A model generated the notes under the pieces. That model was not told the DNA's origin, did no database searches, and saw only the letters and a list, made by a program, of their open reading frames with translations. The position numbers were made by a program, and so were the translations under genes. Shown here one piece after another: positions 4,409 to 60,314 of a stretch of 60,613 nt of DNA. This stretch comes from Pseudomonadota bacterium (GTDB taxonomy: Bacteria; Pseudomonadota; Gammaproteobacteria; Chromatiales; Chromatiaceae), in NCBI GenBank assembly GCA_052035915.1, contig JBPOHE010000007.1:1-60613 (forward strand), given 5' to 3'. Numbering within the stretch: position 1 is the first letter of the stretch; the number at the start of each line of letters is the position of its first letter.

Positions 4409-5611
4409 TCAGTTTCCACATTCGCGACGGTATTCTCCGGCGCCAATCATTCCATCCTGGAAGCGCTCCAATAAGCCCCGACAGCGTGCCGACATTCCAC
4501 CCGCAGACGCTTTCGGCTGAGCAGCGGTGACGAGGGGAGCGGGTTTGAATCTCGGCTGAGCCTGGGAGACGGCCTTCACCGCCGGCTTGGATTGCGCCAC
4601 CATCGTTTCCGGCGCCTTGGATTTTGCTTTTTCCCCAGCCCCGGCGATGGGCTGGGGGGCAAGCGGCTTCGCGGCTACCGAGGGGGGCAAGGGGGCCGTA
4701 GGGGGTGTCGGAGATACAGTCGGAGTCACGGGCTGTGTCTCGATTTTCGCCAGAGCACTACAGCCGGCGAAGCAGAATTCCCCTTTCAACGAGGTGTTCT
4801 CCCAGGGCACCTGGCCGCCCTGGCTCTCCTCGACCACGGCCTCCCGCACCGACTTGAACATGGCCTCCACCGTCAGGCCGGGTTGGGCCAGGAAACGCAA
4901 CAGGTGCTTGGTATAGAGCCCGTTCGCACCGCCACCATCGGCGGCCACACCGCCCGGGGCCGTGGCATAGGCGATGAGAGACCCCACAGGTCCGCTCAGG
5001 GCGGTCAGACCCCTGTTGGTACCGCTGCGAAAGCCTTTGAAGGGATTATCCCGACAGGCATCCAGGATGAGGATGGTAACCCGGGTTCCCGCCTGTTCCG
5101 CCGCTTCGAAGACCACCCCCACATCGAGGGCGCGGTTGCGGAGTTCGGTCTTGCTGGCAATACGGGCCTGCACCGGGATCAGATAATTGTTGCCATCCGC
5201 CTGCACGCCATGGCCGGAATAGTAGAACAACCCGACGCTGTCCTTCCCGAGTCGCCGCCCGAACTCGCGCACGGCCTCTTCCATGCCGGACTGATCCGCA
5301 TTCTCGCGATAGATGACCTGGAAGCCCAGTGTTTCCAGCACCACCTTCAGGGCACGGGCATCATTGACGGGATTTCGCAACGGCGATTCTTCGTAGGTCT
5401 GATTGCCGATCACCAGGGCCAGTCGTTGCTCTTCCTGCACCCGCTTGAAGCCCCGGGTTTCACTGGGGATCGGCGCCGTCGGGGCCTGGTTTCCTTCGGC
5501 GCCAAAGATCGGTTTTGACAGGATCGCACCCAGAACGGTCAGCAACAATCCTGCCCACATCCACTTGTTCGGTCTATCCAGGGGACCGGCCATCCAACCC
5601 GCGAGATTCAA
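4409..5611 (-). CDS. caspase-family (peptidase C14) protein with N-terminal signal/anchor and Pro/Ala-rich C-terminal tail
   Basis: The His-Cys dyad context is conserved: LFYYSGHGVQADGNNYLIP and ILILDACRDNPF. The hydrophobic N-terminus is WMWAGLLLTVLGAILSKPIFGA. The C-terminal 120 aa are low-complexity P/A/K-rich. Confidence 0.8.
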   Translation of the reverse strand: MNLAGWMAGPLDRPNKWMWAGLLLTVLGAILSKPIFGAEGNQAPTAPIPSETRGFKRVQEEQRLALVIGNQTYEESPLRNPVNDARALKVVLETLGFQVIYRENADQSGMEEAVREFGRRLGKDSVGLFYYSGHGVQADGNNYLIPVQARIASKTELRNRALDVGVVFEAAEQAGTRVTILILDACRDNPFKGFRSGTNRGLTALSGPVGSLIAYATAPGGVAADGGGANGLYTKHLLRFLAQPGLTVEAMFKSVREAVVEESQGGQVPWENTSLKGEFCFAGCSALAKIETQPVTPTVSPTPPTAPLPPSVAAKPLAPQPIAGAGEKAKSKAPETMVAQSKPAVKAVSQAQPRFKPAPLVTAAQPKASAGGMSARCRGLLERFQDGMIGAGEYRRECGN

Positions 5612-6287: not shown

Positions 6288-6292
6288 CTCGA

Positions 6293-8425
6293 TCAGTCCA
6301 GTCGCTCCCATACCGTGAGTTCGGCCAGGCTGTGCTGGAACTTGCGTTTGGTCTCCCGGATCACGAAGGGGACATCCCTGGGTTCACCGACGAGACGGAA
6401 CCGCCGGCCGAGGATCTCGCTCATGGCGTCCAGGGTGGTCAGATTCTCCCCGTCCTTTTTGAAGCCGCCGATCCATTCGTCGCGCTCGGTGTGCTCGATC
6501 AGCCAGGTGTAGGGGGAACTGATCACCAGCAGACCGCCCGGGCGGAGACGTTCGTGGATGCCGGCCAGGAATCGGCGCGGACTGTAGAGCCGATCGATCA
6601 GATTACCAGCGAAGATAAGGTCATAGTCGGCGTAGATCGGCTTGAGATTGCAGGCATCGGCCTGGAAGAACTCGACCCTGGATTCGCTGCCCACCAGTCC
6701 CGTCTCGCTCAGGCGGCTTTCGTGGTAGGACACCAGCTCTCCCTCCTCCGGCAACACATACTGGATGTAGCCCTTGGATTTCATCTCCTCGGCGATGCGG
6801 ATGAAACGCGCCGAAAAATCCAGACCCGTAACCCGGGCGAAGCCGGTCGCCAGCTCGAAGCTGGTGCGTCCCAGGGCACAGCCTATGTCCAACGCCCGCT
6901 CCCGAGGGCGATCCCGCATCAGCTCGAGGCAGAGGCGGGCACATTCCCGCGGATAATTGGCGACGCCGAAATACTCCCGGCCCCAGTGCAACTCGCAATA
7001 CTGGGCCACCAGCACATCGGTCTCGTAATAGTCGCTACGGACCCTGACCTGATGCTCCGACTCCAGATAACGAAATCCGGCATGCTGGAAAAAATGCCGC
7101 CGGAAGGCATAGCGCGCATCCTTGGTCGCCTCGTTGCCGGTGGAGATCCAGGAACCGCCCTTGATCAGGTTGTGCTTGGTGTCGAAGGTCGGGGTGGAAA
7201 AGTCGTCGTAGAGGGGATGCACCCGGAAACCCGGAAAGCCGTTGATGGGGGTCTCGGTCCACTGCCAGACATTACCGACGACATCGTAAAAAGGTCCCTG
7301 GGGAAACTCGTCCACCGGACAGGCCGAGGCCCAGTGTTCGAGATTGATATTCCCCGGCGCGCCCCGCCAGCCGTCCACATCCGGTAGGCCGCTGAGTTCC
7401 CGCAGGCGATACCACTCCTCCTCGGTGGGCAGCCGGATCGGCTTGTCCCGGCGCGCGCCGAACCAGTTGCAGAAGGCCTTGGCCTCCAGATAGTTGACCT
7501 CAACCGGCCAATTCCAGGGCATGGGGATTTCCTCCAGCATCAGCCGCAGACGCCAATCGCCAGTCGGCTGGGGGCGCCAGAACAGGGGATGCTCGGCTTG
7601 GCGATAGCCGCGCCAGGCCCAACCTTCCTCGGTCCACCAACGGGATTCGCGATAGCCGCCATCCTCGACAAAACCCAGGTATTCGGCATTGGAGACCAAA
7701 TAACGACCGGCTCGGAAGGCCGCTATCTCCTGTTCCAGTTGGCCGTATTCGTTGTCCCAGCCGTAGAAGGGGTGATCCTTGGCCTTGCCGAGCCGGAGGA
7801 TTCCGGCGGGCACCTCGACCAAGTCATTCGGCGGTGCCTCGCCGACCTTGGGACAGACGCGCCAGAAAGGATCCGGGCGCAGCCATTCCAAGGGCAACTG
7901 CCGGATGAGCACGGAGGAGGTTTCGAGGTGGATGCGCTCGTGCTCGATACCCATCATGATGGCCCAGAACGGCGAGTCCCAATCGATGGGCAGACTCAAG
8001 GGTAATTCCCGGATGACCCGGTCCAGGGTTTGACGCACCTCTTGCCGATAGGCCCAGACCTCGGCCACCGAGGGCCAGTCGTAATGGGCCTCGTTGAGAT
8101 CGTCCCAGGACATCTCGTCCACCCCTACCGCGAAGATGGACTCGAATCTCGGGTTGATACGCTCGGACAGCCGCTTCGCCAGCACCAGTTTGTTGATAAA
8201 AAACACCGCGGTGTGACCGAGGTAGAAAATGAGCGGGTGACGCAGGAGATCCGCCTTGCGATAGTAGGCCTCATCCCTGGCCAGGGTGGCGAAGAGCCGT
8301 TCGTAGATATCGAAGCTGGCGTGGAAATAGCGGCGGATGCTTTCCCGCTTGGCGTCGGGATCTCCCGAACGCAGGTCGGGCGTATAGGCGGGTTCGAGGT
8401 CTAATGACATGATCAATTCTCGCAA
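6293..8425 (-). CDS. ovoA: 5-histidylcysteine sulfoxide synthase / 4-mercaptohistidine N1-methyltransferase (ovothiol biosynthesis)
   Basis: 710 aa with the three-part OvoA architecture. It has a DinB-like N-terminus (HPLIFYLGHTAVFFINKL), an FGE-sulfatase-like middle (GNVWQWTETP) and a C-terminal class I SAM methyltransferase (ALDIGCALGRTSFELA). Confidence 0.85.
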   Translation of the reverse strand: MRELIMSLDLEPAYTPDLRSGDPDAKRESIRRYFHASFDIYERLFATLARDEAYYRKADLLRHPLIFYLGHTAVFFINKLVLAKRLSERINPRFESIFAVGVDEMSWDDLNEAHYDWPSVAEVWAYRQEVRQTLDRVIRELPLSLPIDWDSPFWAIMMGIEHERIHLETSSVLIRQLPLEWLRPDPFWRVCPKVGEAPPNDLVEVPAGILRLGKAKDHPFYGWDNEYGQLEQEIAAFRAGRYLVSNAEYLGFVEDGGYRESRWWTEEGWAWRGYRQAEHPLFWRPQPTGDWRLRLMLEEIPMPWNWPVEVNYLEAKAFCNWFGARRDKPIRLPTEEEWYRLRELSGLPDVDGWRGAPGNINLEHWASACPVDEFPQGPFYDVVGNVWQWTETPINGFPGFRVHPLYDDFSTPTFDTKHNLIKGGSWISTGNEATKDARYAFRRHFFQHAGFRYLESEHQVRVRSDYYETDVLVAQYCELHWGREYFGVANYPRECARLCLELMRDRPRERALDIGCALGRTSFELATGFARVTGLDFSARFIRIAEEMKSKGYIQYVLPEEGELVSYHESRLSETGLVGSESRVEFFQADACNLKPIYADYDLIFAGNLIDRLYSPRRFLAGIHERLRPGGLLVISSPYTWLIEHTERDEWIGGFKKDGENLTTLDAMSEILGRRFRLVGEPRDVPFVIRETKRKFQHSLAELTVWERLD

Positions 8426-8608
8426 AGGGCCGCTGTCGGGCGATCCGCTGGCGGCTTCAAGTGTAGCGACGATTCTAAGCCGTCCATCCTGATCGGTGAA
8501 ACACCCATCGAGGGCAACAACGCCCTTATTCCGCTGAGAAATATTTGCCTGGATCTGGCCTGGGAACTAGAGTCAGAGTAAAGAACCTCCCCCATCAGGA
8601 GCCGGCCC

Positions 8609-9604
8609 ATGCGCACCCGTCGTCTCGGTAACACGGACCTCCAGCTTTCCTGCATCGGCCTGGGAACCTGGGCCATCGGTGGTCCCTGGGACTTCGGTTG
8701 GGGGCCGCAATCGGACGAGGATTCGATCTCCACCATACGTCGGGCGCTGGACCTGGGCGTCAATTGGATCGACACCGCCCCCGTCTACGGTCTCGGGCAC
8801 GCCGAACTGGTCGTGGGCCGGGCCATCAACGGACGACGCGACAAGGTCATCATCGCCACCAAATGCGGTCTGGTGTGGGACGAATGCCCCCAGCGCAAGT
8901 TATGCGGCCGACTCAAGGCGGAAAGCATCAAGCGGGAGGCGGAAAACAGCCTGCGACGGCTGGGTATCGAGACCATCGACCTCTATCAGGTCCACTGGCC
9001 GAATCCCGAACCCGATATCGAAGAGGCTTGGTCGGCCATCGGGGAGCTGATCGCCGAGGGCAAGATCCGTTATGCCGGGGTCGCCAACTTCTCCGTGGCC
9101 CAGATGGAACGACTTCAAGCCATCCACCCCATCGCCTCCCTGCAACCGCCTTACAGCCTGCTGGATCGGGCCGTCGAGAGCGAATTGCTGCCCTATTGCG
9201 TAGCCCAGGGTATCGGCATCGTGGCCCACGGCCCCATGGCCTATGCCCTCTTGACCGGGAAGTTCAGCCACTCCTATATCGCCACCCTGCCCGCCGACGA
9301 CTGGCGCCGTCGGGGCGGTTGCTTCCAGGAACCCGAACTCAGCGCCAACCTGGCGTTCGTCGACAAGCTCAAGACCCTCGCCGAACGCCGCGGCCATCAG
9401 GTGGCCCATCTCGCCATCGCCTGGGTGCTGCGCCGACCCGAGGTGACCGCCGCCATCGTCGGCGCGCGTCGCCCCCAGCAGATCGAACAAACCCATGCCG
9501 CCGCCTCTCTGGATTGGCTGCCGGAAGATCTGGAGACCATTGAGGCCTGGCTGGCCGAGCGGGATCGGATCATCAGCACCCATATAGCCTGCTCCCCGGT
9601 GTGA
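8609..9604 (+). CDS. aldo/keto reductase
   Basis: 331 aa with typical AKR motifs: LGTWAIGG, GVNWIDTAPVYG, IDLYQVHWP. Confidence 0.9.
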   Translation: MRTRRLGNTDLQLSCIGLGTWAIGGPWDFGWGPQSDEDSISTIRRALDLGVNWIDTAPVYGLGHAELVVGRAINGRRDKVIIATKCGLVWDECPQRKLCGRLKAESIKREAENSLRRLGIETIDLYQVHWPNPEPDIEEAWSAIGELIAEGKIRYAGVANFSVAQMERLQAIHPIASLQPPYSLLDRAVESELLPYCVAQGIGIVAHGPMAYALLTGKFSHSYIATLPADDWRRRGGCFQEPELSANLAFVDKLKTLAERRGHQVAHLAIAWVLRRPEVTAAIVGARRPQQIEQTHAAASLDWLPEDLETIEAWLAERDRIISTHIACSPV

Positions 9605-9754
9605 TACCATTTCTTGATAGGTATTATCGATATTCGTAGGCTGGTGTTGAGGCGCGAAGCGCTGAAACCCAGCTTCTGAGTAGCTGGGATTCGCTTCGCT
9701 CATCGCCAGCCTACCCCATGACTTTCAGGCGGATAAACTAATAGGAAATGGTAT
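9604..9754. repeat. MITE-like repeat family A, copy 1 (151 bp)
   Basis: Perfect 10-bp terminal inverted repeats (ATACCATTTC ... GAAATGGTAT). An internal long hairpin is based on GCGAAGCGCTGAAACCCAGCT; it is partly deleted in this copy. Near-identical to 14639-14792 in the same orientation. Confidence 0.85.
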
Positions 9755-9970: not shown

Positions 9971-10372
9971 ATGAGCATCGAAGAGGAACATCAAGACGTC
10001 CTGCAGAATATCGAGTTCGTCGTCACCCAGATCTATAGACGCCATCCAACATTGACCGACTACGGCGTTCTGCGCGCCTACGAGGCCCTGGTTCAAACCT
10101 ATACCGCGGAACTCTCGGGACGTCCGCCGAAGCCGTTGATGTTACAAGGAGGGCCTGAAGGGGTGATGCTGGAGAACCTCAGAATCATCTGTGAATGGCG
10201 TCTGGGTCGGATCAACAGGCCAAACGCCGCGGGCCGGGGAGAACAGTCAGAGCCCATTGATATTCCGACCCTGATTCAATGCCTGAAAAGGCTCATCAAG
10301 TCCGTCAACAAGTGGAACAAAAGCGGCGGCCAACAAGGGTACCTGCACTTCATGACGCAATTTATCCATTGA
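9971..10372 (+). CDS. hypothetical protein (133 aa)
   Basis: Clean ORF preceded by an AT-rich stretch and followed by a perfect 18-bp palindrome (10384-10401, ACAGGCCGATCGGCCTGT). I recognise no motif. It is the only plus-strand gene in the accessory segment. Confidence 0.5.
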   Translation: MSIEEEHQDVLQNIEFVVTQIYRRHPTLTDYGVLRAYEALVQTYTAELSGRPPKPLMLQGGPEGVMLENLRIICEWRLGRINRPNAAGRGEQSEPIDIPTLIQCLKRLIKSVNKWNKSGGQQGYLHFMTQFIH

Positions 10373-10640
10373 GGGCTCGGACGACAGGCCGATCGGCCTG
10401 TGGTGGGTTGGCTTCGCTTATCAGCCTCACCAAGAGACGGCTGCCTCAGCCCTCTATACGCTGGTTCCCAAGCTCCAGCTTGGGAACCACTGCGTGGCAA
10501 GCTCTTGCTTACCGACCTTCGACATTCCCAAGGAGGACCTTGGGAACGAGCGGACCTCCTGTCATCACTGCTTGACTGTGAACAACTCCTCTTCAGGGTT
10601 CACGATGTTTGCATGTGCGATTGCCCTGTTGATGGTGGCG

Positions 10641-10692
10641 ATTAAACATGCGTGCGATTAGGCTACGCCAATCGCACCTACGGCCCTTTAAT
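10641..10692 (-). repeat. attC-like / REP-like imperfect palindrome downstream of TA cassette 1
   Basis: Minus-strand reading: TATTAAAGGGCCGTAGGTGCGATTGGCGTAGCCTAATCGCACGCATGTTTAAT. The toxin stop codon lies inside the first arm. A related copy with conserved arms and a variable centre is at about 59545-59600. Confidence 0.4.
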
Positions 10693-10972
10693 ACACCTCG
10701 TCGTGGGTGCCAATATCATGCAAAATGATGACTTCACATCCTGTTTTCTCATCGATTTCAATGGAGAAAACAATGCGGCAATCATAGCCACGGGAGCAGG
10801 CCCACAATCCCAGCAGAGCACCGCTAAGTTTATGCGTTCACGGGGCAGGCGCAAATACATCCGCCTGCATTCGCCGAAGCACCTCATCAATATAATCTTG
10901 CAACTTGGGAGTCTGTTTTCCAAATTTCCGATAGGCTCGCCGAAATCTTGGCGTGATAACCAACAGCCTCAT
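10688..10972 (-). pseudogene. RelE/YafQ-family toxin gene interrupted by an in-frame TGA (codon 45)
   Basis: Hand translation: MRLLVITPRFRRAYRKFGKQTPKLQDYIDEVLRRMQADVFAPAP*THKLSGALLGLWACSRGYDCRIVFSIEIDEKTGCEVIILHDIGTHDEVY*. The C-terminal half is the classic RelE/YafQ signature. The stop is at 10838-10840. The ATGA start/stop overlap with the antitoxin is preserved. Confidence 0.75.
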
Positions 10973-11199
10973 TCATCATCCTCAAGCGTCCGATGCAACT
11001 CGGCAATGGCCTCTTCTGCAGATTGCGCCTTGAATTGGCCATCGCGGAAAGCCGCTATTGACTTATTAGCATCGACCATGATTTCCTGCCGCCGGGTTTC
11101 AATCCGGCGCTTGCTTAGAATGTCGATCAGCATTTCTTGCTGATCTGGCGGAAGTTGCAAAACGGTATTAATGGCTTGATCCAAGGTTATGGCATTCAT
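10969..11199 (-). CDS. type II antitoxin (partner of the RelE/YafQ-like pseudogene)
   Basis: 76 aa from MNAITLDQAINTVLQLPPDQQEMLIDIL..., with an AAGGAG Shine-Dalgarno sequence 8 nt upstream. The acidic C-terminus and the 4-nt ATGA overlap with the toxin start are typical. The longer 11277 start lacks an RBS. Confidence 0.7.
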   Translation of the reverse strand: MNAITLDQAINTVLQLPPDQQEMLIDILSKRRIETRRQEIMVDANKSIAAFRDGQFKAQSAEEAIAELHRTLEDDE

Positions 11200-11303
11200 C
11201 GTTTCCACAATCTCCTTGCTTTCATTACAGCCGTAGAAGGTACGCGATGCGTACCCTACGAGGCTCTCCTGCGTCACGCATGCGTTCGGGTGGGATCATG
11301 AGT

Positions 11304-11359
11304 TCTAACGCCTGCCTCAGCCGCGAGCGTAGCGAGTCGTCTGGAGGCGCATGTTAGGA
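11304..11359 (-). repeat. attC-like recombination-site candidate
   Basis: Minus-strand reading: TCCTAAC-ATGCGCCTCCAG...CTGAGGCAGGC-GTTAGAA. This has an inverse-core-like YYTAAC and a core-like GTTAGR, with imperfectly paired inner arms. It is 56 nt long and lies between the two TA cassettes. Confidence 0.5.
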
Positions 11360-11477
11360 AATTACGTGTATTCTCTGGTTGCATTCAGCGTCGTTGGATG
11401 TTGGGTTGGCGATACGGCCGCCAACCCAACCTATGGTGCTGGGTCCGAGTGAAAGCGCAGGTTAGCTTTCAAATTCA

Positions 11478-11729
11478 TCAGTAGATTTCTCGACGATGGC
11501 CTATTGCAATAACGATCACAACTAACTGTTCGTCGTGGATTTCGTAGATGACTCTGAAATCGCCAATTCGGATTCGCCACGCATCTCTACCTGTGAGTTT
11601 CTTGCTGCCGACTGGTCTTGGATTGTGGGAAAGCGCTTTTACCTGATCAGCAATCTCTGCTCGACGGACTTTATCAATTTTTGCAAGGGACTTCTGCGCG
11701 CTTCGAGTGATTGAGATCGATTAGCTCAT
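11478..11729 (-). pseudogene. RelE/ParE-family toxin gene with TAA at codon 3
   Basis: Hand translation: MS*SISITRSAQKSLAKIDKVRRAEIADQVKALSHNPRPVGSKKLTGRDAWRIRIGDFRVIYEIHDEQLVVIVIAIGHRREIY*. This is the canonical RelE/ParE pattern (RIRIGDYRVIYEI...IGHR.EIY). The stop is at 11721-11723, and there is no downstream ATG/GTG/TTG near the N-terminus. Confidence 0.75.
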
Positions 11730-11932
11730 GAGCTGACATCAGTATCTATCTCGTTCAGTGCCTGATCAAAAGGGATTATCTCGTCGCTAGTGAGTTTAGC
11801 TTCGTCGTAAGCCTTTATGTCTTCGAGTTCCTCTATGGCGCTGAGGATTTCCCGCCATTCATTAATGGGTAAGACTACGGACTTAGGAGTCTGATTAGAG
11901 TCGACAATGTATTCTGGATGAAGAATGTTCAT
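11726..11932 (-). CDS. type II antitoxin (Phd/YefM-like by pattern)
   Basis: 68 aa: MNILHPEYIVDSNQTPKSVVLPINEWREILSAIEELEDIKAYDEAK... The ATGA overlap with the toxin start is present. Confidence 0.7.
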   Translation of the reverse strand: MNILHPEYIVDSNQTPKSVVLPINEWREILSAIEELEDIKAYDEAKLTSDEIIPFDQALNEIDTDVSS

Positions 11933-11984
11933 GGTGTGTACCTATTGTAACCACGCTTCGGATTTCGACTAGTTTAGTAGGTCG

Positions 11985-12040
11985 AAAAAACACAGTGTTG
12001 CCCGACATTTTATAGAAGATGTCGGGCACAGGTGCCCGAC
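11985..12040 (-). terminator. tandem hairpins plus T-run downstream of the two-gene operon
   Basis: On the minus strand, right after the TAG at 12041, come two hairpins. They are GTCGGGCAC-CT-GTGCCCGAC and TGCCCGACAT-cttctataaa-ATGTCGGGCA, followed by ACACTGTG-TTTTTT. Confidence 0.5.
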
Positions 12041-13159
12041 CTACCGGGCTGTCTTCACTCTATGTTTTTCGTAGGCTTCCATTTTGTATCTTTCTAAAGA
12101 CTCAATAACCAGTTTACTGACTGTGCTTCTGGTTAATCCTTCTTCATTTGCTTCTAATCTGAGCATCGAAAGATTAAGCGTCAACTCGCCCCCCGCAGAC
12201 TCATCCTTATCAGAAAACTCAAATAGTATTCTGCATGTTCCAGAGCAATTATCGCCTTCAAACTCATAATCACATTGAAGCCCGAACAATCGGATATACG
12301 GATGAATGGATTTATCACTGACGAAAAATGTCGAGTGAAGCCCCTGTCCCTTCATCTTCATGTCTTCGATCTTATCCTTCATCCACGCAATATTCTGCGG
12401 CGGGTTAGCAACGCTGTGATCTGGTGAAAAATGAATGTCCCTGGTGTCAACAAAGCGCAGCATTGAGTGACTTACGTTTTGGGTGAGATCATTCATAAAT
12501 TGTACGCGTGATTCATTCGTGAAGTCTGAATACCTGATTATTGTTACGCCGACACTTTGTTTGATGTGCCCTTCGCTTTTGAAGTGCTTTATCAAAGCAC
12601 TTGAGACTTTGTTTCCGAAGTCGATTGTTTCTGGTGCGGTATGGCTTAGCGAAATGTTTAAGGACTTACCATCGTTGCTTTTCCGTATTTCAACACGGCC
12701 CCCATGTGTGACTGTGTTTTCTCCCCAGTTCTTAACTGGATCACGTCTATCAATCTCGAAATCCATGTAGATGTGATCTGGATTATCATTTGATGCAGTA
12801 AAATTTGACATACTTGAAAGACTGAATACACCAAACTGGTCATTCAGAAGAGTCTCGTAGTCAGCCATATCTGGCAAAGACTCAAGCAAGTTGGATTCAG
12901 AATCCCAGCTAATAGTGCGAGTTTTAGATTTTGGCGATTCCTCTTTTGTCCTATAGCTCTCGCGCAAGTCCACGTACTCAAAGGGAGACAGCCCGGTCTT
13001 GATGAGAATGGGGCCTAGAACTTCCTTCTGATCTGACCCTGTAAATACCCCTCTTGCGCGCAAAACGTTTTTTAATTCGGCGTTCTTAACCTTTGTCTGG
13101 CCAATTAGCTGGCGCAAAAAATCCCTAGTAGGAAGCAAGACCTCTTCGTTGTTATTCAT
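12041..13159 (-). CDS. hypothetical protein B (372 aa), second gene of AT-rich operon
   Basis: Clean 372-aa ORF with a start ATG inside ATGAATAA, an 8-nt overlap with the upstream gene. Sampled lines are 32-50% GC, against about 63% in flanking core genes. I recognise no catalytic or nucleotide-binding motif. Confidence 0.8.
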   Translation of the reverse strand: MNNNEEVLLPTRDFLRQLIGQTKVKNAELKNVLRARGVFTGSDQKEVLGPILIKTGLSPFEYVDLRESYRTKEESPKSKTRTISWDSESNLLESLPDMADYETLLNDQFGVFSLSSMSNFTASNDNPDHIYMDFEIDRRDPVKNWGENTVTHGGRVEIRKSNDGKSLNISLSHTAPETIDFGNKVSSALIKHFKSEGHIKQSVGVTIIRYSDFTNESRVQFMNDLTQNVSHSMLRFVDTRDIHFSPDHSVANPPQNIAWMKDKIEDMKMKGQGLHSTFFVSDKSIHPYIRLFGLQCDYEFEGDNCSGTCRILFEFSDKDESAGGELTLNLSMLRLEANEEGLTRSTVSKLVIESLERYKMEAYEKHRVKTAR

Positions 13160-14102
13160 TATTCAAGCTCCTGTAGTCTGGCCGAAAGCTAGCTACTTTT
13201 ATCCGGGTAAAGATATCGCTCTCAAAACCTGTGGCAGCCCTCTTGACTGCATCACCATGACTAGACTCAACATAATTAGGAAATAGAAACAGCAACGTGC
13301 AACTCATGTCTTGAGTGTATTCTTTGGCTGCTTGGATTAGCCTGCGCAGAGAGTCTTGCGCAAAACCTTCTATGGTAGACAGACAGAAAATATCCTGATC
13401 ATGCCGGGACTGTGCCTTAATGATTAGCGGAATCAAAGGTGAGGTCAGAAATTCAAGCGGACATACCTTTCCATATCTCGATATGGTTTTGTCAACATAA
13501 CTTAGTGAAGTCTCAGGATAATAAAAGTGCAGGCGATCGGAGTCGTACTCATGTCTCAAATACTGCACGGTGTCGAATATAAAGTTTATTCTCTGATTAT
13601 CAACCACATGAAACGACTCAAAGCTCCAATCGGAATCAAGTTGTGAGTTTGCAATTTTTGATACGACATCATCATATGTTTCTTCGTTACTCGATAGCCA
13701 GAACAATACCCCGGAATCCCTACTTTTCGTTGTTCGCCCCAACAATTCCTGCTGTTGCTTTTTTAACTCTGAATGTTTGTAACACTCCAAGGTTTCGACT
13801 AAGTCCTTGGCGTGCGATTTGAAAGTCGACTTTGGATTGTTTTCGTACGGGTTTTGTGAATGCTTAACAGATATTACCGCGCTTTCGGCAGTCGAGCCTT
13901 CAAGTGGGCTTCTATAGCAGTACAAATAGTCAATTCCATGTGTTTCTCTTTTTCCAGTCTTTGACCCTTCACTGGCATGTTTGCTTGGCTTTCTACATGG
14001 CAGTTCTTGCCCAGATAAAACGCCTTCCCACCCCAATAAATGGAAGAAATTGCCAACGATATTCTCGCCAATTTCTCCAATTTTTTTAGATTTTTCACCC
14101 AT
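13152..14102 (-). CDS. hypothetical protein A (316 aa) with PD-(D/E)xK-like (Mrr/DUF4365-like) N-terminal region
   Basis: The N-terminus is KKIGEIGENIVGNFFHLLGWEGV ... THGIDYLYCYRSP ... AVISVKHS. This resembles the helix (GE..E) / beta (G-I-D) / beta (S-V-K) core of restriction-endonuclease-fold proteins (E13, D58, S78-x-K80). I recognise nothing in the C-terminal 180 aa. AT-rich. Confidence 0.8.
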   Translation of the reverse strand: MGEKSKKIGEIGENIVGNFFHLLGWEGVLSGQELPCRKPSKHASEGSKTGKRETHGIDYLYCYRSPLEGSTAESAVISVKHSQNPYENNPKSTFKSHAKDLVETLECYKHSELKKQQQELLGRTTKSRDSGVLFWLSSNEETYDDVVSKIANSQLDSDWSFESFHVVDNQRINFIFDTVQYLRHEYDSDRLHFYYPETSLSYVDKTISRYGKVCPLEFLTSPLIPLIIKAQSRHDQDIFCLSTIEGFAQDSLRRLIQAAKEYTQDMSCTLLFLFPNYVESSHGDAVKRAATGFESDIFTRIKVASFRPDYRSLNNE

Positions 14103-14180
14103 TGCAAGTTCCTTTCACCAATCTGCGGGTTGGATTTTTATGCATAACATGTAATCGACGACATCGTCTTCCTACCAAAA

Positions 14181-14198
14181 GTATCTAAATCTAGATAC
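14181..14198. promoter_or_regulatory. palindrome GTATCTA-AATC-TAGATAC about 80 nt upstream of protein A (possible operator)
   Basis: 7-bp perfect arms, seen directly in the AT-rich leader of the operon. The role is inferred only. Confidence 0.3.
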
Positions 14199-14499
14199 CA
14201 ACCCTTACCCCAATGGTCCTCCATCAGCTCCCACCCTGGATCCCAACCCCGGGGCTACGGCATTTTCGTAGCCTGACTTCCACAACCGCGGATGAGGTCG
14301 CCATATCCATCCAGCCTGATTGACCTCGTTGCGCCGATCGATCTCCCAATATTCCACCCGAGCTGTACGCCACGCAGGCCGGGCACTTTATGGGATGCCC
14401 GACATTTTCCATTGAATCCCTGGACAAGGCCAGGCTTTGGCCCAACCTTCTACATCACTCCCTAACAGCTGAGATAACCTTGAAGAGTCAGGTTTTGGC

Positions 14500-14625
14500 G
14501 TTCCCGGGCATGGGCGGTTTAGCCCGATTTTTCCTTCTCCTAGAGAGAACAATGCCCCATCATGAATGGGCATATGTTCTCTTTAGAAGAACGAAGAATG
14601 GCCGTTTGGGGCCCATGCCCGGAAC
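14500..14625. repeat. MITE-like repeat family B copy (paired TGTTCTC/GAGAACA palindromes)
   Basis: Terminal inverted repeats GTTCCCGGGCATGGGC ... GCCCATGCCCGGAAC. The core is TTCTCCTAGAGAGAACAATGCC...GCATATGTTCTCTTTAGAAGAAC. Confidence 0.7.
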
Positions 14626-14638
14626 CTGGAAGGGCCTC

Positions 14639-14792
14639 ATACCATTTCTCGATAGGTATTATCGATATTCGTAGGCTGGTGTTGAGGCGCGAAGCGCTGA
14701 AACCCAGCTTCTCAGTAGCTGGGTTTCAGCGCTTCGCTCATCGCCAGCCTACCCCATGGCTTTCAGGCGGATAAACTAATAGGAAATGGTAT
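14639..14792. repeat. MITE-like repeat family A, copy 2 (154 bp)
   Basis: Same TIRs as copy 1. It carries the full 21-bp-stem hairpin GCGAAGCGCTGAAACCCAGCT-tctcagt-AGCTGGGTTTCAGCGCTTCGC. It is in direct orientation relative to 9604-9754. Confidence 0.85.
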
Positions 14793-14861
14793 CAGCGACT
14801 AGCTCGGCCATCCTTTGCCGAGGTTCCCTGAAACACCCGAGCCCTTCCCCGCGACCAAGGC

Positions 14862-16409: not shown

Positions 16410-16657
16410 CTCCCCCTCCCCTTTTGGTTCAAGATTCATCCTCCGGCAGCGCCCGATAATAGGCCGCCTCCGGATACCCGTAGGGTGCGCAAAGCGCACC
16501 AGAATGGTGGGCGATGCTTCGACTTCGCTCAGCACAGGTGCCCACCCTAGCGTTCCCGGGCACCACAGGCACAGCGGCGCCCAGCACCACCCCGGCACAC
16601 AGCCACAAGAAATACCGTCGATCCGCCTCCCATTCATCTGTGTTCATACTCTCCTCC

Positions 16658-25647: not shown

Positions 25648-25727
25648 GCAGAGTAGGTCGGCAATCCTTTGCCGACACCCCTTGATCGGCATCAAATGGC
25701 GGCAAGGGGTTGCCGCCCTACGAACTC
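25648..25727 (+). repeat. REP-like repeat family C, copy 1 (about 80 bp, two short hairpins)
   Basis: GCAGAGTAGGTCGGCAATCCTTTGCCGAC...GATCGGCATCAAATGGCGGCAAGGGGTTGCCGCCCTACGA. The hairpins are GTCGGCAA-tcct-TTGCCGAC and GGCGGCAA-gggg-TTGCCGCC. Confidence 0.8.
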
Positions 25728-26415: not shown

Positions 26416-26532
26416 CCGGGCCTGGGCTGAAAAGCGCTGGTTTCTGTTCTCATTAGGAGAACAATGCGGCCTGTAGAAAGGCATTGTTCTCGATTGGAGA
26501 ACAAAAAACCGGGCCAAAGCGCCCTGGCCCGG
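26416..26532. repeat. MITE-like repeat family B copy (best-preserved)
   Basis: Ends are CCGGGCCTGGGC ... GCCCTGGCCCGG. The two palindromes are TGTTCTCATTAGGAGAACA (26445-26463) and TTGTTCTCGATTGGAGAACAA (26484-26504). It lies between convergent genes. Confidence 0.75.
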
Positions 26533-26812
26533 AAGCGTCAAAAGACGAACTGGCCGGCCATGAAGGTCGCCGCCAGGCCCGCCTGGCCGGCGGCGAACCT
26601 GATGGCTCCAACGACTCCGGCTCCGTCCCGACCTCCCAGGGCTCATCTTCCCAGGCCAGCCAGGCCTCCATCCGCTGTTGTCGCGCGTCCCTCTCCAATT
26701 GGCGCCGATCCCTGTGCGCCCCGCCCTTGCGCAGCAAGGGCGATTTGGCCGCCAGATTACGTATCTTCACCCCTTTCATACTTTCTCTCCCAAGGCCACT
26801 GAAAGCCTTCAC

Positions 26813-30456: not shown

Positions 30457-30531
30457 TGGCGGAAATGGAGGATTTGAACCCCCTACCCACTGGTGATCGG
30501 CCAGTTGCTCTACCCAACGAGCTCATTTCCA
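30457..30531 (-). ncRNA. tRNA-like element with non-canonical positions (possible tRNA pseudogene)
   Basis: The minus strand folds into a cloverleaf: (U)GGAAAU-GA-GCUC-GUUGGGUA-GAGC-A-ACUGG-CCGAUCA-CCAGU-GGGUA-GGGGG-UUCAAAU-CCUCC-AUUUCC(G)-CCA. It is non-canonical at several points: the anticodon loop CCGAUCA has C33 and C37, position 8 is G, and the 1-72 pair is U-G or missing. A second T-arm/acceptor fragment (GGUCCGCGGUUCGAAUCCGCUUGACAGCA) follows at 30411-30446. Confidence 0.35.
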
Positions 30532-30678
30532 CGGGCTTTCAAGGATCTCGCTGCCCCGGTACGGACCCTGCGATCGCGCCATCCATTCGAGGCGGCGGAG
30601 AGGCTTGGGCACGCCAGGCCGGAATGGGAACCGGCACCGCTGGAGCAGAGAGCCTTCCCTGAAAGAGTTTTACGGGGC

Positions 30679-30840
30679 TTAAGGCGATTTCTGTCAAAAG
30701 ATAACCAGCCTGCGGGTCTGTTCGTCCGCCTTCGGTGTTCCGCCAGCCGTTACAGAGCTCGCTCTGCGCCGTCTGACGCGCCTGGAAAGCGAACGAACCG
30801 CCGTCGCATTCAGGTATGTCTTTTTCCGGCAATCGCCTAA
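30679..30840. repeat. MITE-like repeat family D, copy 1 (about 160 bp)
   Basis: The element runs TTA(A)GGCGATTTCTGTCAAAA...CCGGCAATCGCCTAA, with terminal inverted repeats TTAGGCGAT/ATCGCCTAA. It aligns along its whole length with 37505-37664. Confidence 0.8.
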
Positions 30841-31107: not shown

Positions 31108-33645
31108 CTAATCTCCGCACTCGGCCGGCGTCATGGGCAGATCCCGGGTTTCGGCGATCGAGAAGGGGGCGAATACCGCCTTGTAGGGGAAGAAGCCCTC
31201 CGCCCAGGCGAAGAGGGTCACCTGGCCGTTGCCGTCCGTCGGGATATCGTCCAAGGCGTACAGACCGTCGCCACCACAACTGAACTGGCTCTGGCCGTTG
31301 GCCAGCAGCATGGCGCAGACGGGGATGGTCGTCCCCGCCAGAAACACCTTGCCCGAAAGACTTGCCTTGGGCAGGCTGCTGTGTTGAGTGGTCGTACCAC
31401 CGTCCGGCCCCTGGCAGGGTGACACCCTCATGGCCACATCGACCTGCCCGAAGGTCGTGTCTGGGGTGAACACCAGCTTATAGGGATCGAAACCATCGGC
31501 CCAAGAATACAGGGTGACCTGGTCCTGACTATCGAGGGGAATGGATTGCAAGGCGAAGCGGCCTTCCCCATCACAACTGAACTGGCTCCGGCCGTTGGCC
31601 AACACCAGGGCGCAGACAGGGATGTCGGTGCCGAACAGGGAGACGACGCCGGAGAGGTCGATCTGGGAAAAGAGACTCAGTTTGGCGACGAAGGCGTCAT
31701 CATAAGAATTGCCGTTATGCGCCCGAAGCGGAGCACCCCAGGTGGCCAGACTCCAACCGGTCACGTAGACATGACTGGTTCCCTTCAGCGCAATACCTTT
31801 GCCCGAATCGGTTTCGCTGCCGAGAAAGGTGTTCCAGAGGAGGAAGCCATTGAGGTTGAGCTGGGCGACAAAGGCATTGGGACATGGGAAGGTGTACCCA
31901 TCGCCGCAGGTTCCACCGCTATAAGGCTGGAGCGGACTGGCCCAGGTGGCGGAACTGTACCCAGTCACAGAAAGATTGCCGTTGGCGTTTATCGCGAGGC
32001 CATAGCCGAAATCGTTATGGCTGCCGCCGAGGAAGCTGTTCCAGAGCAGGGCGCCATCAGCGTCGATCTGGGCGACAAAGGCGTCGATACAAGGGTATAT
32101 TCCAGGGGCAGAGCCGCAAGCTCCGCCGCTATGCGTCCGCAACGGGCTGCCCCAGGTGGCGTCGCTACCTCCCGTCACATAGACATGGTCACTGTCGTCC
32201 AGGGCGATACCCCGACCTGAATCGTAGCCGCTGTTACCAAGAAAGGTGTTCCAGAGCAGCTCGCCATGGGCGTCGAGCTTGGCGACAAAGGCATCGTAAC
32301 CGCCGCTATGCGCCCGTAGTGGACTACCCCAGGTAGCGAAACTGTACCCGGTCACATAGATATGGCCACTGCCGTCTAGGGCGATGCCATAACCGAGGGC
32401 CCCGTCGCTGCCGCCGAGGAAGCTGTGCCAGAGCAGGGCGCCATTGGGGTCGAGCTTGGCAACAAAGGCACCGGCACCACTATGCGTCCGCACCGGGTTG
32501 CCCCAGGTGGTGCCGCTGCCTCCCGTCACATAGACATGGCCACTGCCGTCCACGGCGATACCATAGCCGAAATCGTTTTGGCTGCCGCCGAGAAAGACAT
32601 TCCAGAGCAGGGCGCCATCGGCATCGAGCCGGGCGGCAAAGGCATCGGTACAAGGGATTGGCACACGGTAACCACAATATCCGCCACCATACTCTCGCAA
32701 CGGACTACCCCAGGAAGCGTTGCTGCGACCGGTCACAAAAATATGGCCGCTGCCATCCAAGGCGACACCCTCACCTAAATCGTCGCCGCTGCCACCCAGG
32801 AAGGTGTTCCAGAGCAAGGCGCCATCGGGATCGAGCTTGGCGACAAAGGCATCGTAACCGCCGCCATGCGCCCGTAGTGGACGGCCCCAGGTGGCGTCGC
32901 TGGAACCAGCGACATAGATGTTGCCGTCGCCATCCACCGCGAGGCCATTACCAGCATCACTACCACTACCGCCCAAAAAGGTATTCCAACTCAAGGTGGG
33001 ATCGATCCACAGCGGGCGGGTCGGATCGTGCTCACCCAACGCAAAGCCCAGTTCCCGTTCGCCATGCTGGACAAAGGAGACGCTGACGGATAGACGCTGG
33101 CCGTCCACTTCCTGCCAGGCGATGGGCGCGGATTCGCTGAGGACGCCGGTATCAAAACGGATGCTCAGGCGGCCATCGGCGGTGAGGTTCAAGGACCGGT
33201 TGTAGCGCAGCCGTACCTGATTGATGTCGGCGCCTGGTTGCAGTCGGTAGAGACTTTCGGCGATACCGCCCGGCGCGGCGTGGTAGCTGAGGTCGATGCC
33301 GTCCCAGAGATTGGGGTAGCGTACTTGCGTCAGGGGCGGGGCCGGCGACTCCTGGCCGGTCGCCGCCGGGGTGTCGCTCTGGGGGATGACAGGCTGGGCG
33401 TTGAGGAATTCCACCTTGAGCCCATGATGACCGCTGGCCGTGAGTAGGTACCGAGGAGCAAAACCCAGCACATGACCACCGGCGGTAAAGGTCTGTAGTT
33501 CAGGTGTCGGCGGCGAGGTGAGCGTTGTCCTGCCCTCCGGCAAGGGGGACGTCATGGGTTCCATCCCCCCGAGACTGGCTGATCCCACCCCCACCAGGCC
33601 GAGCAGCCCGGCCAATCCAAGTCCATACCACAGCTTCAGATTCAT
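31108..33645 (-). CDS. secreted SBBP beta-propeller-repeat protein with two C-terminal Cys-containing tandem domains
   Basis: Start set at the ATG at 33645 (MNLKLWYGLGLAGLLGLVGVGSA signal; AAGGAGGAA upstream). It has about 8 repeats of WNTFLGGSGxDxGxGIAxDGSGxxYVTGxSxATWGSPLRAHxGGxDAFVAKLDxxGxLLW. The tail has two about 95-aa repeats (IPVCALVLANGRSQFSCDGEGRFAL / IPVCAMLLANGQSQFSCGGDGLYAL). Confidence 0.85.
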   Translation of the reverse strand: MNLKLWYGLGLAGLLGLVGVGSASLGGMEPMTSPLPEGRTTLTSPPTPELQTFTAGGHVLGFAPRYLLTASGHHGLKVEFLNAQPVIPQSDTPAATGQESPAPPLTQVRYPNLWDGIDLSYHAAPGGIAESLYRLQPGADINQVRLRYNRSLNLTADGRLSIRFDTGVLSESAPIAWQEVDGQRLSVSVSFVQHGERELGFALGEHDPTRPLWIDPTLSWNTFLGGSGSDAGNGLAVDGDGNIYVAGSSDATWGRPLRAHGGGYDAFVAKLDPDGALLWNTFLGGSGDDLGEGVALDGSGHIFVTGRSNASWGSPLREYGGGYCGYRVPIPCTDAFAARLDADGALLWNVFLGGSQNDFGYGIAVDGSGHVYVTGGSGTTWGNPVRTHSGAGAFVAKLDPNGALLWHSFLGGSDGALGYGIALDGSGHIYVTGYSFATWGSPLRAHSGGYDAFVAKLDAHGELLWNTFLGNSGYDSGRGIALDDSDHVYVTGGSDATWGSPLRTHSGGACGSAPGIYPCIDAFVAQIDADGALLWNSFLGGSHNDFGYGLAINANGNLSVTGYSSATWASPLQPYSGGTCGDGYTFPCPNAFVAQLNLNGFLLWNTFLGSETDSGKGIALKGTSHVYVTGWSLATWGAPLRAHNGNSYDDAFVAKLSLFSQIDLSGVVSLFGTDIPVCALVLANGRSQFSCDGEGRFALQSIPLDSQDQVTLYSWADGFDPYKLVFTPDTTFGQVDVAMRVSPCQGPDGGTTTQHSSLPKASLSGKVFLAGTTIPVCAMLLANGQSQFSCGGDGLYALDDIPTDGNGQVTLFAWAEGFFPYKAVFAPFSIAETRDLPMTPAECGD

Positions 33646-34164: not shown

Positions 34165-34244
34165 GCAGAGTAGGTCGGCAATCCTTTGCCGACACTCCCT
34201 GATCGGCATCAAATGGCGGCAAGGGGTTGCCGCCCTACGAACTC
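34165..34244 (+). repeat. REP-like repeat family C, copy 2
   Basis: Near-identical to 25648-25727 and 52486-52567, in the same orientation. Confidence 0.8.
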
Positions 34245-59260: not shown

Positions 59261-59616
59261 TCCCCGAAAAGGGAAAAAGGAAACAGATCAAAGGGAAGAA
59301 GCCAATATCCTGGCCAGACGAAAACCCCAGGGGGAAGTCCCAGCGGCGTAGGTTGGGTTGACACCGTCAACCCAACATTCCAAGCAGCGCCGGGGAGAAA
59401 TGTTGGGTTGCGCAATACGCAACCCAACCTACGATACTTGTTAGGCCATTTTCAGGTTTCATAATTTAGCTTGGTCCCTTTTCAACTTTTCCCAAACGGA
59501 TCAGCTCGCGTAGCTCCGATTAGCGACAGCGTAATCGGAGGAATGTAGCTTTCATGCGTGCGATTACACTAGGGTAATCGCACCTACGGTCCTTTGGTGG
59601 TTGCACGTGCAAGCCT

Positions 59617-59685
59617 CCTAACACGTTCAAATTAACCGGCCTGCGCGGCTTTTCGCGCAGGTCCGATTGAATGCTGGGTTAGGGC
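59617..59685 (-). repeat. attC-like site at the 3' end of the Mrr-like cassette
   Basis: Minus-strand reading: GCCCTAAC-CCAGCATTCAATCGGACCTGCGCG-aaaag-CCGCGCAGGCCGGTTAATTTGAACGT-GTTAGGA. The TAA stop of the ORF lies inside the CCCTAAC inverse-core-like box. GCCCTAA is complementary to the TTAGGGC that begins the cassette at 60236-60242. Confidence 0.6.
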
Positions 59686-60230: not shown

Positions 60231-60235
60231 GCTGT

Positions 60236-60314
60236 GCCCTAACGTAGAGTTAACCGGTGGCCAAGACGACGCGAAGCGGCGTTTTGGGCGTTCGGATTGA
60301 ACGCCATGTTATAT
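60236..60314 (-). repeat. attC-like site upstream of the Mrr-like cassette
   Basis: Minus-strand reading: ATATAAC-ATGGCGTTCAATCCGAAC...CCACCGGTTAACTCTAC-GTTAGGGC, then 5 nt, then the ORF ATG. It shares conserved arms (TTCAATCSGA / CCGGTTAA) and a variable centre with 59617-59685. Confidence 0.55.

Follow-up and report, generated by a model that had tools for sequence, protein, structure and literature searches.

Two kinds of integron-related element come closest to the locus described here. CALINs, which comprise at least two attC sites within 4 kb and no intI nearby, and single attC sites were defined by Cury et al. 2016 (PMC4889954); both consist of same-strand cassettes with attC and no neighboring integrase gene, and their cargo includes unknown, toxin-antitoxin (TA), and defence genes. 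Sedentary chromosomal integrons, such as the Vibrio cholerae superintegron, have TA cassettes interleaved with defence cassettes, which are the typical cargo of integrons (bioRxiv 10.1101/2024.07.02.601686). The window, that is, the whole stretch of 60,613 nt that was analyzed, contains at 9.6-14.8 kb an island that shares these features and is probably a small chromosomal integron-type cassette array without an integrase of its own, partly decayed and colonized by repeats. The TA cargo comprises ParE/RelB, YafQ-like, and, in a sister allele, BrnT/A pairs; the defence cargo consists of GAPS4 in the array, an AAA ATPase in a sister allele, and, at 59.6-60.3 kb of the window, an Mrr-like nuclease. 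In contrast to CALINs, the window allele keeps one detectable attC, a conserved attI-like insertion point, and REP/REPIN elements at the cassette junctions. With 2-4 cassettes, it is tiny beside sedentary chromosomal integrons, and it further differs from them in that the contig lacks intI, the attC sites are heterogeneous and do not form a single homogeneous family, and both toxins are inactivated. The array is a fresh example of an already known kind of element.

The island is bordered by an aldo-keto reductase gene, which ends at 9604, and a Memo/AMMECR1 gene, which starts at 16637. An earlier note on this DNA had described the gene units as lying all on the minus strand, each with an imperfect palindrome on its 3' side, and this is borne out for the YafQ-like pair, the ParE/RelB-like pair, and the two-gene operon. 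The units are as follows:

13152..14102, minus strand: GAPS4a, first gene of the proximal cassette (Pfam PF26115 PDDEXK_GAPS4, precomputed on the identical protein)
12041..13159, minus strand: GAPS4b (Pfam PF26110 GAPS4b_N, precomputed on the identical protein)
11726..11932, minus strand: RelB-like antitoxin of TA2 (PF18506, 32.5 bits)
11478..11729, minus strand: ParE toxin pseudogene of TA2 (PF05016, 55.2 bits)
10969..11199, minus strand: antitoxin of TA1, 76 aa, with no Pfam family
10688..10972, minus strand: YafQ-like toxin pseudogene of TA1 (PF15738, 23.6 bits, below the cutoff)
10398..10687, minus strand: non-coding tail ("S") of the last cassette, with more palindromes at 10459-10552

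GAPS4a encodes a PD-(D/E)xK nuclease subunit of 316 aa that carries an HGID...SVK motif; the GAPS4a motif HGxD...SxK has been described (bioRxiv 10.1101/2025.09.07.674715). Our own Pfam and PADLOC scans of GAPS4a returned no match. The adjacent GAPS4a and GAPS4b genes constitute a predicted GAPS4 anti-phage system. The ParE toxin is interrupted at codon 3 by a TAA (11721-11723), and an intact ParE of 83 aa is found in related strains (L052-L056 and L062), while the YafQ-like toxin has an in-frame TGA at 10838-10840. The nonsense codons in both toxins had gone unmentioned in the earlier note. In strain L062, the non-coding tail is duplicated behind an ATPase cassette, and a REP and an attC come after the duplicate. 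A scan of the island for promoters and terminators stayed close to the shuffle expectation, with promoter-like matches below it and terminator-like matches about 1.7 sd above it, and was uninformative.

Candidate attC sites were scored with a home-made covariance model (R1) built from 18 real class-1 cassette attC sites. Real attCs held out of the training set score 24.8-29.8 bits. With the filters off, 189 kb of unrelated proteobacterial DNA gave nothing above 12.6 bits, and across about 250 kb of controls the background matches nowhere exceeded 12.6-14.4 bits. Within the 60.6 kb of the window, the three highest-scoring matches all lie on the minus strand, and the fourth-ranked match reaches 14.4 bits. 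These three are listed by score, with E-values that are rough, given the short calibration of the model and its restriction to class-1 sites:

60237..60314, minus strand: attC upstream of the Mrr-like cassette (24.8 bits, E 1.6e-4)
11303..11359, minus strand: candidate attC site of the island (21.4 bits, E about 1.3e-3, minus strand only)
59616..59684, minus strand: attC at the 3' end of the Mrr-like cassette (20.1 bits; plus strand, 12.3)

The first and third of these correspond to what had been called a clearer pair around the Mrr-like gene (59617-60314), an assessment that their scores of 24.8 and 20.1 bits uphold. The boxes of the site at 60237-60314 include L'' GTT[C]AATCCGA and L' CCGGTTAAC, and the stop codon of the Mrr-like gene lies inside R'' (CCCTAAC) of the site at 59616-59684. 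With its two attC sites, the segment 59616-60314 is a CALIN. A search at Rfam gathering thresholds retrieved two tRNAs only; Rfam has no attC family. A naive scan for AAC...GTT pairs and complementary 7-mers, followed by folding, was abandoned as unspecific, matches in coding regions having outranked the candidates.

The island had been thought to carry an attC-like site after each gene unit. This proved wrong, as just one of the five palindromes is a candidate attC and the others are REP or REPIN elements:

11969..12050, minus strand: REPIN ("E"), two GTAGGTCGGGC...GCCCGAC REPs in inverted arrangement, at the GAPS4/TA2 junction
11400..11434, minus strand: REP hairpin TAGGTTGGGTTGGCG...CGCCAACCCAAC, beginning with ATAGG, of the same family as 59349-59376 and 59402-59431
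11233..11259, minus strand: REP hairpin GTAGGGTACGC...GCGTACC..CTAC
10647..10689, minus strand: GTAG-tagged REP hairpin AAAGGGCCGTAGGTGCGATT...AATCGCACGCATG, core of the 10641-10692 palindrome

These four elements are not integrase substrates. Like the REPs and REPINs mobilized by RAYT transposases (PMC3733652, PMC3116915, PMC3479197), they are imperfect hairpins of 20-40 nt with GTAG(G) at one end, extragenic, multicopy, and in some cases arranged as inverted doublets; GTAG-tagged REPs are an established class (PMC3733652). One stem type, GTGCGATT...AATCGCAC, is atypical of REPs in that its sequence hardly varies between beta- and gamma-proteobacteria. Neither 10641-10692 nor 11985-12040 matched the covariance model at E<=10 with the filters off. 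The former palindrome, proposed as attC-like, offers no AAC/GTT (ATTAAAG/GTTTAAT is without AAC), although the observation that the TA1 stop codon sits within one of its arms is correct (TAA 10688-10690, in the TTTAAT arm). Its hairpin (10636-10697) folds better than shuffled sequences (z -2.4 to -3.2), has a second copy at 59553-59595 (repeat family D12), and recurs 30 times in the genomes of unrelated beta- and gamma-proteobacteria; no consistent R boxes flank these 30 homologs. At 11985-12040, the doubt expressed in the earlier note as to the fit with attC was justified, since the site is part of the REPIN. The hairpin at 11975-12050 folds far better than shuffles (z about -6), and the TAG stop of the GAPS4b translation falls within the GTAG of this REPIN. 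Other copies are found in L052/L061 behind a different gene, and the elements at 25654, 34171, and 52492 belong to the same REP family. A long VCR-like attC at 11969-12050 was considered since CATAAC...GTTAGGC flanks the L061 copy, and was ruled out because the distance to the nearest AAC differs between copies (1, 11, or 13 nt), the model gives no match, and members of the REP family lie beside core genes. GTAGG followed by a hairpin occurs in at least 14 places, including beside purA and soxB; TAGG-hairpins number 24, against a mean of 8.1 in shuffles, and REP doublets are present at 25648-25727 (after purA), 34165-34244, and 52488-52567 (before soxB). The earlier note had named the presence of the palindromes in non-cassette intergenic regions as evidence against attC sites; palindromes of the REP type do occur there, and the one at 11303-11359 does not.

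The window allele was compared with those of L061 and L062, the strain alleles having been recovered from metagenomes. Data sets in which the strain is present include SRR14932482, SRR1027651, SRR35571891, SRR14610228, JGI 3300028647, Ga0268298, and WBZP01. At the head of the array lies the following element:

14142..14172, minus strand: attI-like block GGAAGACGATGTCGTCGATTACAT|GTTATGC, with the core GTTATGC at 14142-14148

In the alignment, the three alleles share ...CGATGTCGT..ATT.C.T GTTA.G and diverge directly beyond it. The block occurs once in the window and otherwise only in alleles of the locus. It is a conserved site to which different cassettes are joined at G|TT in the three alleles, and this suggests that it functions as attI. 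The first cassettes vary, being GAPS4 in the window, BrnT/BrnA with an unknown ORF in another allele, and an AAA ATPase in the third, and the distal TA cassettes are common to all alleles, as is everything from the REPIN/TA2 onwards. The L062 allele contains three attC matches within 3.1 kb and in one orientation, at 8539-8653 (38 bits), 6292-6348 (30.8 bits), and 5548-5604 (19.4 bits), which bound the AAA_21/AAA_15 ATPase cassette and the TA2 cassette; having three sites, this allele is a CALIN. The site at 6292-6348 is a paralogue of the window attC with a fully paired L stem (CAGCCG/CGGCTG). For TA1, the last cassette, none of the alleles has an attC. A 12-bit match behind BrnA (L052/L061) was considered as an attC relic and is unproven, as the background reaches 12-14 bits.

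Read on the minus strand, such an array would open with the attI-like block, followed by the GAPS4a/b operon, the REPIN, RelB/ParE with the attC at 11303-11359, and, as the last unit, the YafQ-like TA pair, which has a non-coding tail but lacks an attC. The most likely mechanism is that an integron integrase whose gene lies at another place in the genome would recombine the folded bottom strand of a cassette attC with the attI-like core at its G|TT. New cassettes would enter at the first position, as in sedentary chromosomal integrons, so that strains would vary at the proximal end of the array and have the distal TA cassettes in common. These would have stabilized the array, and their toxins would now be in the course of being lost. 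We infer both the involvement of IntI and this order of events.

The best-placed alternative, considered unlikely, is a defence/TA hotspot remodeled by homologous recombination between shared flanks and REPIN copies, in which the cassettes and their attC were imported once as integron relics and no integrase acts at the locus. Such remodeling would account for the distal side of the variable segment, where the REPIN forms the boundary in all alleles. The window REPIN resembles a hybrid of the two L061 copies, as could arise by homologous recombination: it is 94% identical to the upstream copy but carries the right end of the downstream one. At the junction between GAPS4b and the REPIN the sequence is GAC|AGCC, with GTT missing, and no attC follows GAPS4, so that this boundary is not a clean IntI product; the lack of intI on the contig is also in keeping with this explanation. 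In contrast, three independent alleles have their proximal boundary precisely behind GTTA.G, the variable segment of L062 is bounded on both sides by G|TT cores that belong to strong attC or attI-like sites, and the variation is limited to the first positions, which is the signature of insertion at attI. These features favor an integron-type array.

The single attC candidate of the island was correctly read in the earlier note as TCCTAAC...GTTAGAA on the minus strand. Its boxes are R'' TCCTAAC, spacer ATGCG, L'' CCT[C]CAG, L' CTGAGG, spacer CAGGC, and R' GTTAGAA. R'' and R' contain the AAC/GTT triplets and are complementary at six of seven positions, their first and last letters (T of R'' and A of R') being off the RYYYAAC/GTTRRRY consensus. 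L'' (CCT[C]CAG) pairs with CTGAGG, with an extra C in the 5' arm and 5-nt spacers. Box order and spacing are those of the short class 1 attC sites (57-72 nt; aadA1, cmlA, and aac(6')-Ib), the extra base at position 4 of L'' is also present in aadA1, aac(6')-Ib, cmlA, and arr-3, and the 3' half, GGCTGAGG-CAGGCGTTAG, resembles GGCTGAGCTCAGGCGTTAG of cmlA. Unlike in class 1 sites, the inner stem is poorly paired, the R''/R' ends are slightly off consensus, and no resistance gene is attached. Judged by its sequence, 11303-11359 is supported as a site that would behave as attC, in the correct orientation relative to the cassette ORFs, and a covariance-model match, whose absence had been named as decisive against it, was obtained (21.4 bits). 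It is very unlikely that the locus has no relation to integrons, all palindromes including this one being REPs or terminators and the model match arising by chance. REPs are abundant in the island, the model E-values are rough, and shuffled sequences fold as well as 11300-11363 does (z about -0.1 to -0.2), as such an explanation would have it. Nevertheless, the score stands against a background maximum of 12.6-14.4 bits in about 250 kb, and the site lacks the GTAG tag and has canonical R/L boxes with an extrahelical base. Moreover, the paralogous and neighboring attCs of L062 reach 30.8 and 38 bits, and the same contig and strand hold two further attCs.

The statement that the window contains no integrase holds for integron integrases but not for tyrosine recombinases in general, as a phage-type enzyme is encoded at the start of the contig. 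This gene and the two direct repeats around the island are as follows:

193-1242: phage-type tyrosine recombinase, 349 aa (PF00589, 95.7 bits), adjoining a tRNA
9605..9753: MITE copy 1, terminal inverted repeats TACCATTTC...GAAATGGTA, target-site duplication TGA
14640..14791: MITE copy 2, target-site duplication TCA

A tblastn search with IntI1 over the 60613-nt contig gave just a weak C-terminal match to the integrase at 193-1242, and neither intI nor a remnant of it was found by tblastn or six-frame reading upstream of the attI-like block (14150-14860). The attI-like block and array have no adjacent intI and do not form a complete integron. The 150-nt direct repeats are independent MITE insertions, because they have terminal inverted repeats and separate 3-bp duplications, and because L062 has an empty site for copy 1, where the sequence is CCCCGGTGTGA|GATCC and the element is absent. 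This site and the two distinct duplications also ruled out the repeats as att sites of the island. The least probable explanation of all, that the island is a unit bounded by these repeats (att-like or composite transposon) and inserted by the 193-1242 recombinase or a transposase, has in its favor that the direct repeats are 97% identical and bracket a low-GC segment and that the contig encodes a tyrosine recombinase, but it is contradicted by L062, which has the array without the left repeat and with a clean empty site; moreover, terminal inverted repeats and a separate 3-bp duplication (TGA or TCA) are found at each of the two copies, and the recombinase lies 8 kb off, beside a tRNA at the contig start.

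An integron-type array without intI on the contig is what remains of the earlier comparison of the locus with CALINs. In the region at 9.6-14.8 kb one attC only is detected, and by the IntegronFinder definition the window allele would be classed with the single attC sites that lack an integrase, not with the CALINs. The array nature of the locus is clear only from the strain alleles.

A GTAG hairpin of 34-40 nt, CCGTAGGTGCGATT...AATCGCACGCATG, has a nearly identical sequence in Formivibrio, Undibacterium, Methylococcales, Aeromonadaceae, and the source organism. Six copies adjoin attC sites (in L020, L022, L026, and L031 and two in the window). All six are oriented as the cassettes are and border the portion of the array that is marked by attC sites, none of them having its own attC; the hairpin is beyond the last detected attC in five of the six and ahead of the first attC in L031. 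Because of this shared orientation and array-edge position, and with REPINs likewise at cassette junctions, it is conceivable, if rather doubtful, that GTAG hairpins are array-border elements or surrogate recombination sites that shuffle cassettes without canonical attC or IntI. A possible route for such shuffling would be RAYT-type single-strand processing aimed at folded cassette DNA.

The locus shows how a decayed integron array appears in raw sequence, where REP hairpins are easily mistaken for attC, and it provides a concrete candidate attI-like site. With GAPS4, an AAA ATPase, an Mrr-like nuclease, and three TA families, the case extends the defence cargo of integron cassettes outside Vibrio, here to an uncultured sulfur-oxidizing proteobacterium. 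The REP/REPIN elements at the cassette junctions raise the question of whether the IntI/attC and RAYT/REP single-strand DNA systems interact.

Because Rfam has no attC family, a dedicated covariance model (R1) was built. Sixteen plasmid class 1 integron loci were retrieved with an IntI1 query, and R1 was trained on the attC sites of 18 different cassettes, aligned as A1, with a structure that pairs the R boxes and the L boxes and leaves one base of L'' unpaired. On the plasmid loci, nearly all matches lay inside cassette arrays on the cassette strand, the sole others being the same sites, which scored lower (≤21.8 bits) on the opposite strand. Genuine attC sites outside the training set scored 24.8 (aadA5), 26.4 (dfrA27) and 29.8 bits (gcuC), and with filters off nothing exceeded 12.6 bits in 189 kb of unrelated beta- and gammaproteobacterial DNA. 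Searching both strands of the window with filters off returned three attC matches, with the fourth-ranked at 14.4 bits and no match at 10641-10692 or 11985-12040:

60237-60314, minus, 24.8 bits, E 1.6e-4
11303-11359, minus, 21.4 bits, E 1.3e-3
59616-59684, minus, 20.1 bits, E 3e-3

The site at 11303-11359 reads, on the minus strand, TCCTAAC, ATGCG, CCT[C]CAG, 20 nt, CTGAGG, CAGGC and GTTAGAA, with the boxes in the order R'', 5-nt spacer, L'', L', 5-nt spacer and R', and one extra base at the fourth position of L''. It shares this layout with the real attC sites of aadA1 (GTT[C]AAGC/GCTTAAC), aac(6')-Ib, cmlA and arr-3. The extra base falls on the 5' arm only if the minus strand is the top strand, which is consistent with how the genes are oriented and with R1 scoring that strand alone. 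This canonical R/L layout, together with the R1 score, upholds the choice of 11304-11359 as the best candidate in the earlier note. The fold is not better than that of shuffled sequence and the inner stem is poor; the site would not stand out by stability alone. Its paralogue at 6292-6348 of the sister strain allele L062 has a fully paired L stem (CAGCCG/CGGCTG), and the window attC is therefore a slightly degraded version. It is the single detectable attC in the window's allele of the island, so the proposal of an attC-like site behind every unit does not hold.

The island stands out by its low G+C content at ~9.6-14.8 kb (43-53% versus ~61% in the rest of the window), and all its genes are on the minus strand except one plus-strand ORF of 133 aa (9971-10372):

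10688-10972, minus, YafQ-like toxin of TA1 (Pfam match of 23.6 bits, below cutoff)
10969-11199, minus, TA1 antitoxin, 76 aa
11478-11729, minus, ParE toxin of TA2 (PF05016, 55 bits)
11726-11932, minus, RelB-like antitoxin of TA2 (PF18506)
12041-13159, minus, 372-aa gene, overlapping the 316-aa gene
13152-14102, minus, 316-aa gene (GAPS4a), overlapping the 372-aa gene

The operon at 12041-14102 is predicted to encode the anti-phage system GAPS4. In public assemblies, identical proteins have precomputed Pfam assignments to PDDEXK_GAPS4 and GAPS4b_N, and the 316-aa protein contains the HGxD...SxK motif described for GAPS4a (bioRxiv 10.1101/2025.09.07.674715); local Pfam and PADLOC searches of both proteins gave no match. 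The YafQ-like toxin gene is interrupted by a TGA (10838-10840) and the ParE gene by a TAA at codon 3 (11721-11723), nonsense codons that would inactivate both toxins in the window strain. In sister strains ParE is intact (L062 5723-5974), and the YafQ-like toxin of L062 (4932-5217) is broken independently, via a frameshift. The antitoxins are intact.

The island locus was found in several assemblies at ~99% identity. A distal part composed of REPIN, TA2, REP, attC, REP, TA1, the non-coding tail and the 133-aa ORF is common to all alleles, and the differences are confined to the proximal part:

Window and L001-L005: GAPS4 operon
L052, L054, L055 and L061: unknown ORF, REPIN copy, then BrnT (PF04365) and a 79-aa partner
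L062, first: short cassette without an ORF, with a 115-nt attC at its end (8539-8653, 38 bits)
L062, second: 591-aa AAA_21/AAA_15 ATPase, then a copy of the 10398-10687 tail and REP
L062, last: attC 6292-6348 (30.8 bits), abutting the REPIN of the TA2 cassette

With the third attC of L062 at 5548-5604 (19.4 bits), this allele has three matches in 3.1 kb, all on the same strand, and qualifies as a CALIN as IntegronFinder defines it (PMC4889954). The array head, GG.AGGA.G.CGATGTCGT..ATT.C.T GTTA.G, is common to the window, L061 and L062, and divergence begins immediately after it, at GTTATGC/ATAAAAATCC in the window, GTTATGT/TACAAAAGG in L061 and GTTAAGC/GGCGCTTCG in L062. The attI-like block (14142-14172) is single in the window and occurs elsewhere only in alleles of the island locus. 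Under attI-directed insertion by an integron integrase (bioRxiv 10.1101/2024.07.02.601686), different cassettes would be joined at the G/TT of a conserved site, and the first positions would vary while the distal ones stayed conserved, a pattern that matches the alleles.

A tblastn search with IntI1 found no intI on the contig, its sole match being weak, C-terminal and to a phage-type integrase at the contig start:

26-319, plus, HTH_17 excisionase-like ORF
193-1242, plus, phage-type tyrosine integrase, 349 aa (PF00589, 95.7 bits)
1288-1361, minus, tRNA adjoining the integrase

These three features probably mark one border of a different integrated element, and the integrase is not of the integron type. 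Upstream of the attI-like block there is nothing that resembles an integrase; the public record holds no more of the contig than the window, so one may be encoded elsewhere. The earlier suggestion of an integron-type array without an integrase is supported, and the array nature of the locus rests on the attI-like junction and the sister alleles.

Some points do not fit. No attC was found behind GAPS4 in the window allele, where the last codons run into the REPIN, the stop TAG lies within GTAG and the junction is GAC/AGCC versus GTT/AGCC in L062. The window REPIN matches the upstream copy of L061 at 94% identity, yet its right end is that of the downstream copy, a hybrid that suggests homologous recombination between REPINs and not a clean integrase event. 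None of the alleles has an attC at the last cassette (TA1).

All the palindromes listed in the earlier note exist in the window, and the TA1 stop codon sits within the TTTAAT arm of the one at 10641-10692. Four island palindromes (10647-10689, 11233-11259, 11400-11434 and 11969-12050) consist of GTAGG (ATAGG once) and a hairpin, the last being a REPIN of two such units in inverted orientation. This design recurs in the window:

16481-16549
25648-25727, after purA
34165-34244
52488-52567, before soxB
59349-59434
59553-59595
60416-60499

TAGG-hairpins number 24 in the window versus a shuffle mean of 8.1. REPs are defined by GTAG-tagged palindromes (PMC3733652; REPINs, PMC3116915), and by their sequence the four island palindromes are classed as REPs. 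The hairpin within 10641-10692 has a second window copy at 59553-59595 (86% identity), and its 24 specified bases occur at 30 loci (Formivibrio, Undibacterium, Methylomicrobium/Methylobacter, Aeromonadaceae and others), whose flanks are unrelated and show AAC/GTT boxes in no consistent way. REP-type palindromes thus recur in non-cassette places (for example near purA and soxB), which the earlier note had said would make them plain REP elements, and its attC-like reading of 10641-10692 gives way to a GTAG-tagged REP hairpin.

Copies of the conserved GTAG hairpin lie near attC at four foreign loci (L020 2350-2383, L022 2458-2491, L026 3452-3485 and L031 3083-3116), in each case between same-strand ORFs, and at both window copies (10647-10689 and 59553-59595, the latter directly after the last attC). 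All six are in cassette orientation at a margin of the array portion marked by attC sites, without an attC of their own, past the last detected attC in five and before the first in L031. The other 26 loci have no attC nearby, and six cases are not enough to decide.

An 80-nt REP doublet family (GTAGGTCGGCAATCC...GCCGCCCTAC) is present at 25648-25727, 34165-34244 and 52488-52567, with a partial copy at 14797-14831, and occupies ordinary intergenic regions, such as those following purA and preceding soxB. The REP doublet at 59349-59434 is directly abutted by GCCTAACAAGT (59428-59446, minus), a perfect R'' plus spacer for which there is no matching R'; this may be an attC into which a REPIN has inserted.

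The other two attC matches flank a gene for a 183-aa Mrr-like nuclease (59679-60230, PF04471), which starts 12 nt past R' of the upstream site and has its stop codon inside R'' of the downstream one. The two sites are related to each other (TTCAATC.GA ... CCGGTTAA). Homologues with 73-87% identity occur in Nitrospiraceae, Ramlibacter, Gallionellaceae, Thermodesulfovibrionales and a conjugative plasmid; the close homologues include some on a conjugative plasmid backbone (TrwC, TraG; plasmid-like contigs L063-L065) and one on a Ramlibacter chromosome (L066). Beside two homologues, only weak attC-like matches (13-15 bits) were found. Since the contig ends 300 nt past an attC, in a REP-rich stretch (60315-60613), an assembly break probably truncates this array.

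The 150-nt direct repeats flanking the island were rejected as att sites delimiting it, being two insertions of one ~149-nt MITE (9605-9753 and 14640-14791) with terminal inverted repeats TACCATTTC.../...GAAATGGTA and separate 3-bp target duplications (TGA and TCA, respectively), and in L062 the stop codon of the aldo-keto reductase gene is followed immediately by an empty MITE site. At 1084-1204, L061 carries another element bounded by terminal inverted repeats (120 nt), which the window lacks. Hairpins of a short repeat family, GTTCTC...GAGAACAA, occur at 26480-26536, 52732-52788, 59206-59262 and ~14493-14599, one copy being just upstream of the array. A ~130-nt segment is duplicated at 30676-30809 and 37501-37635 (86-89% identity), with one copy beside a tRNA (30459-30531). 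The tandem 174-210-nt repeats at 31816-32952, in an 845-aa SBBP beta-propeller lipoprotein-like gene, are protein repeats and not a DNA element.

The island is a further example of the known CALIN or single attC sites that carry TA and anti-phage cassettes.
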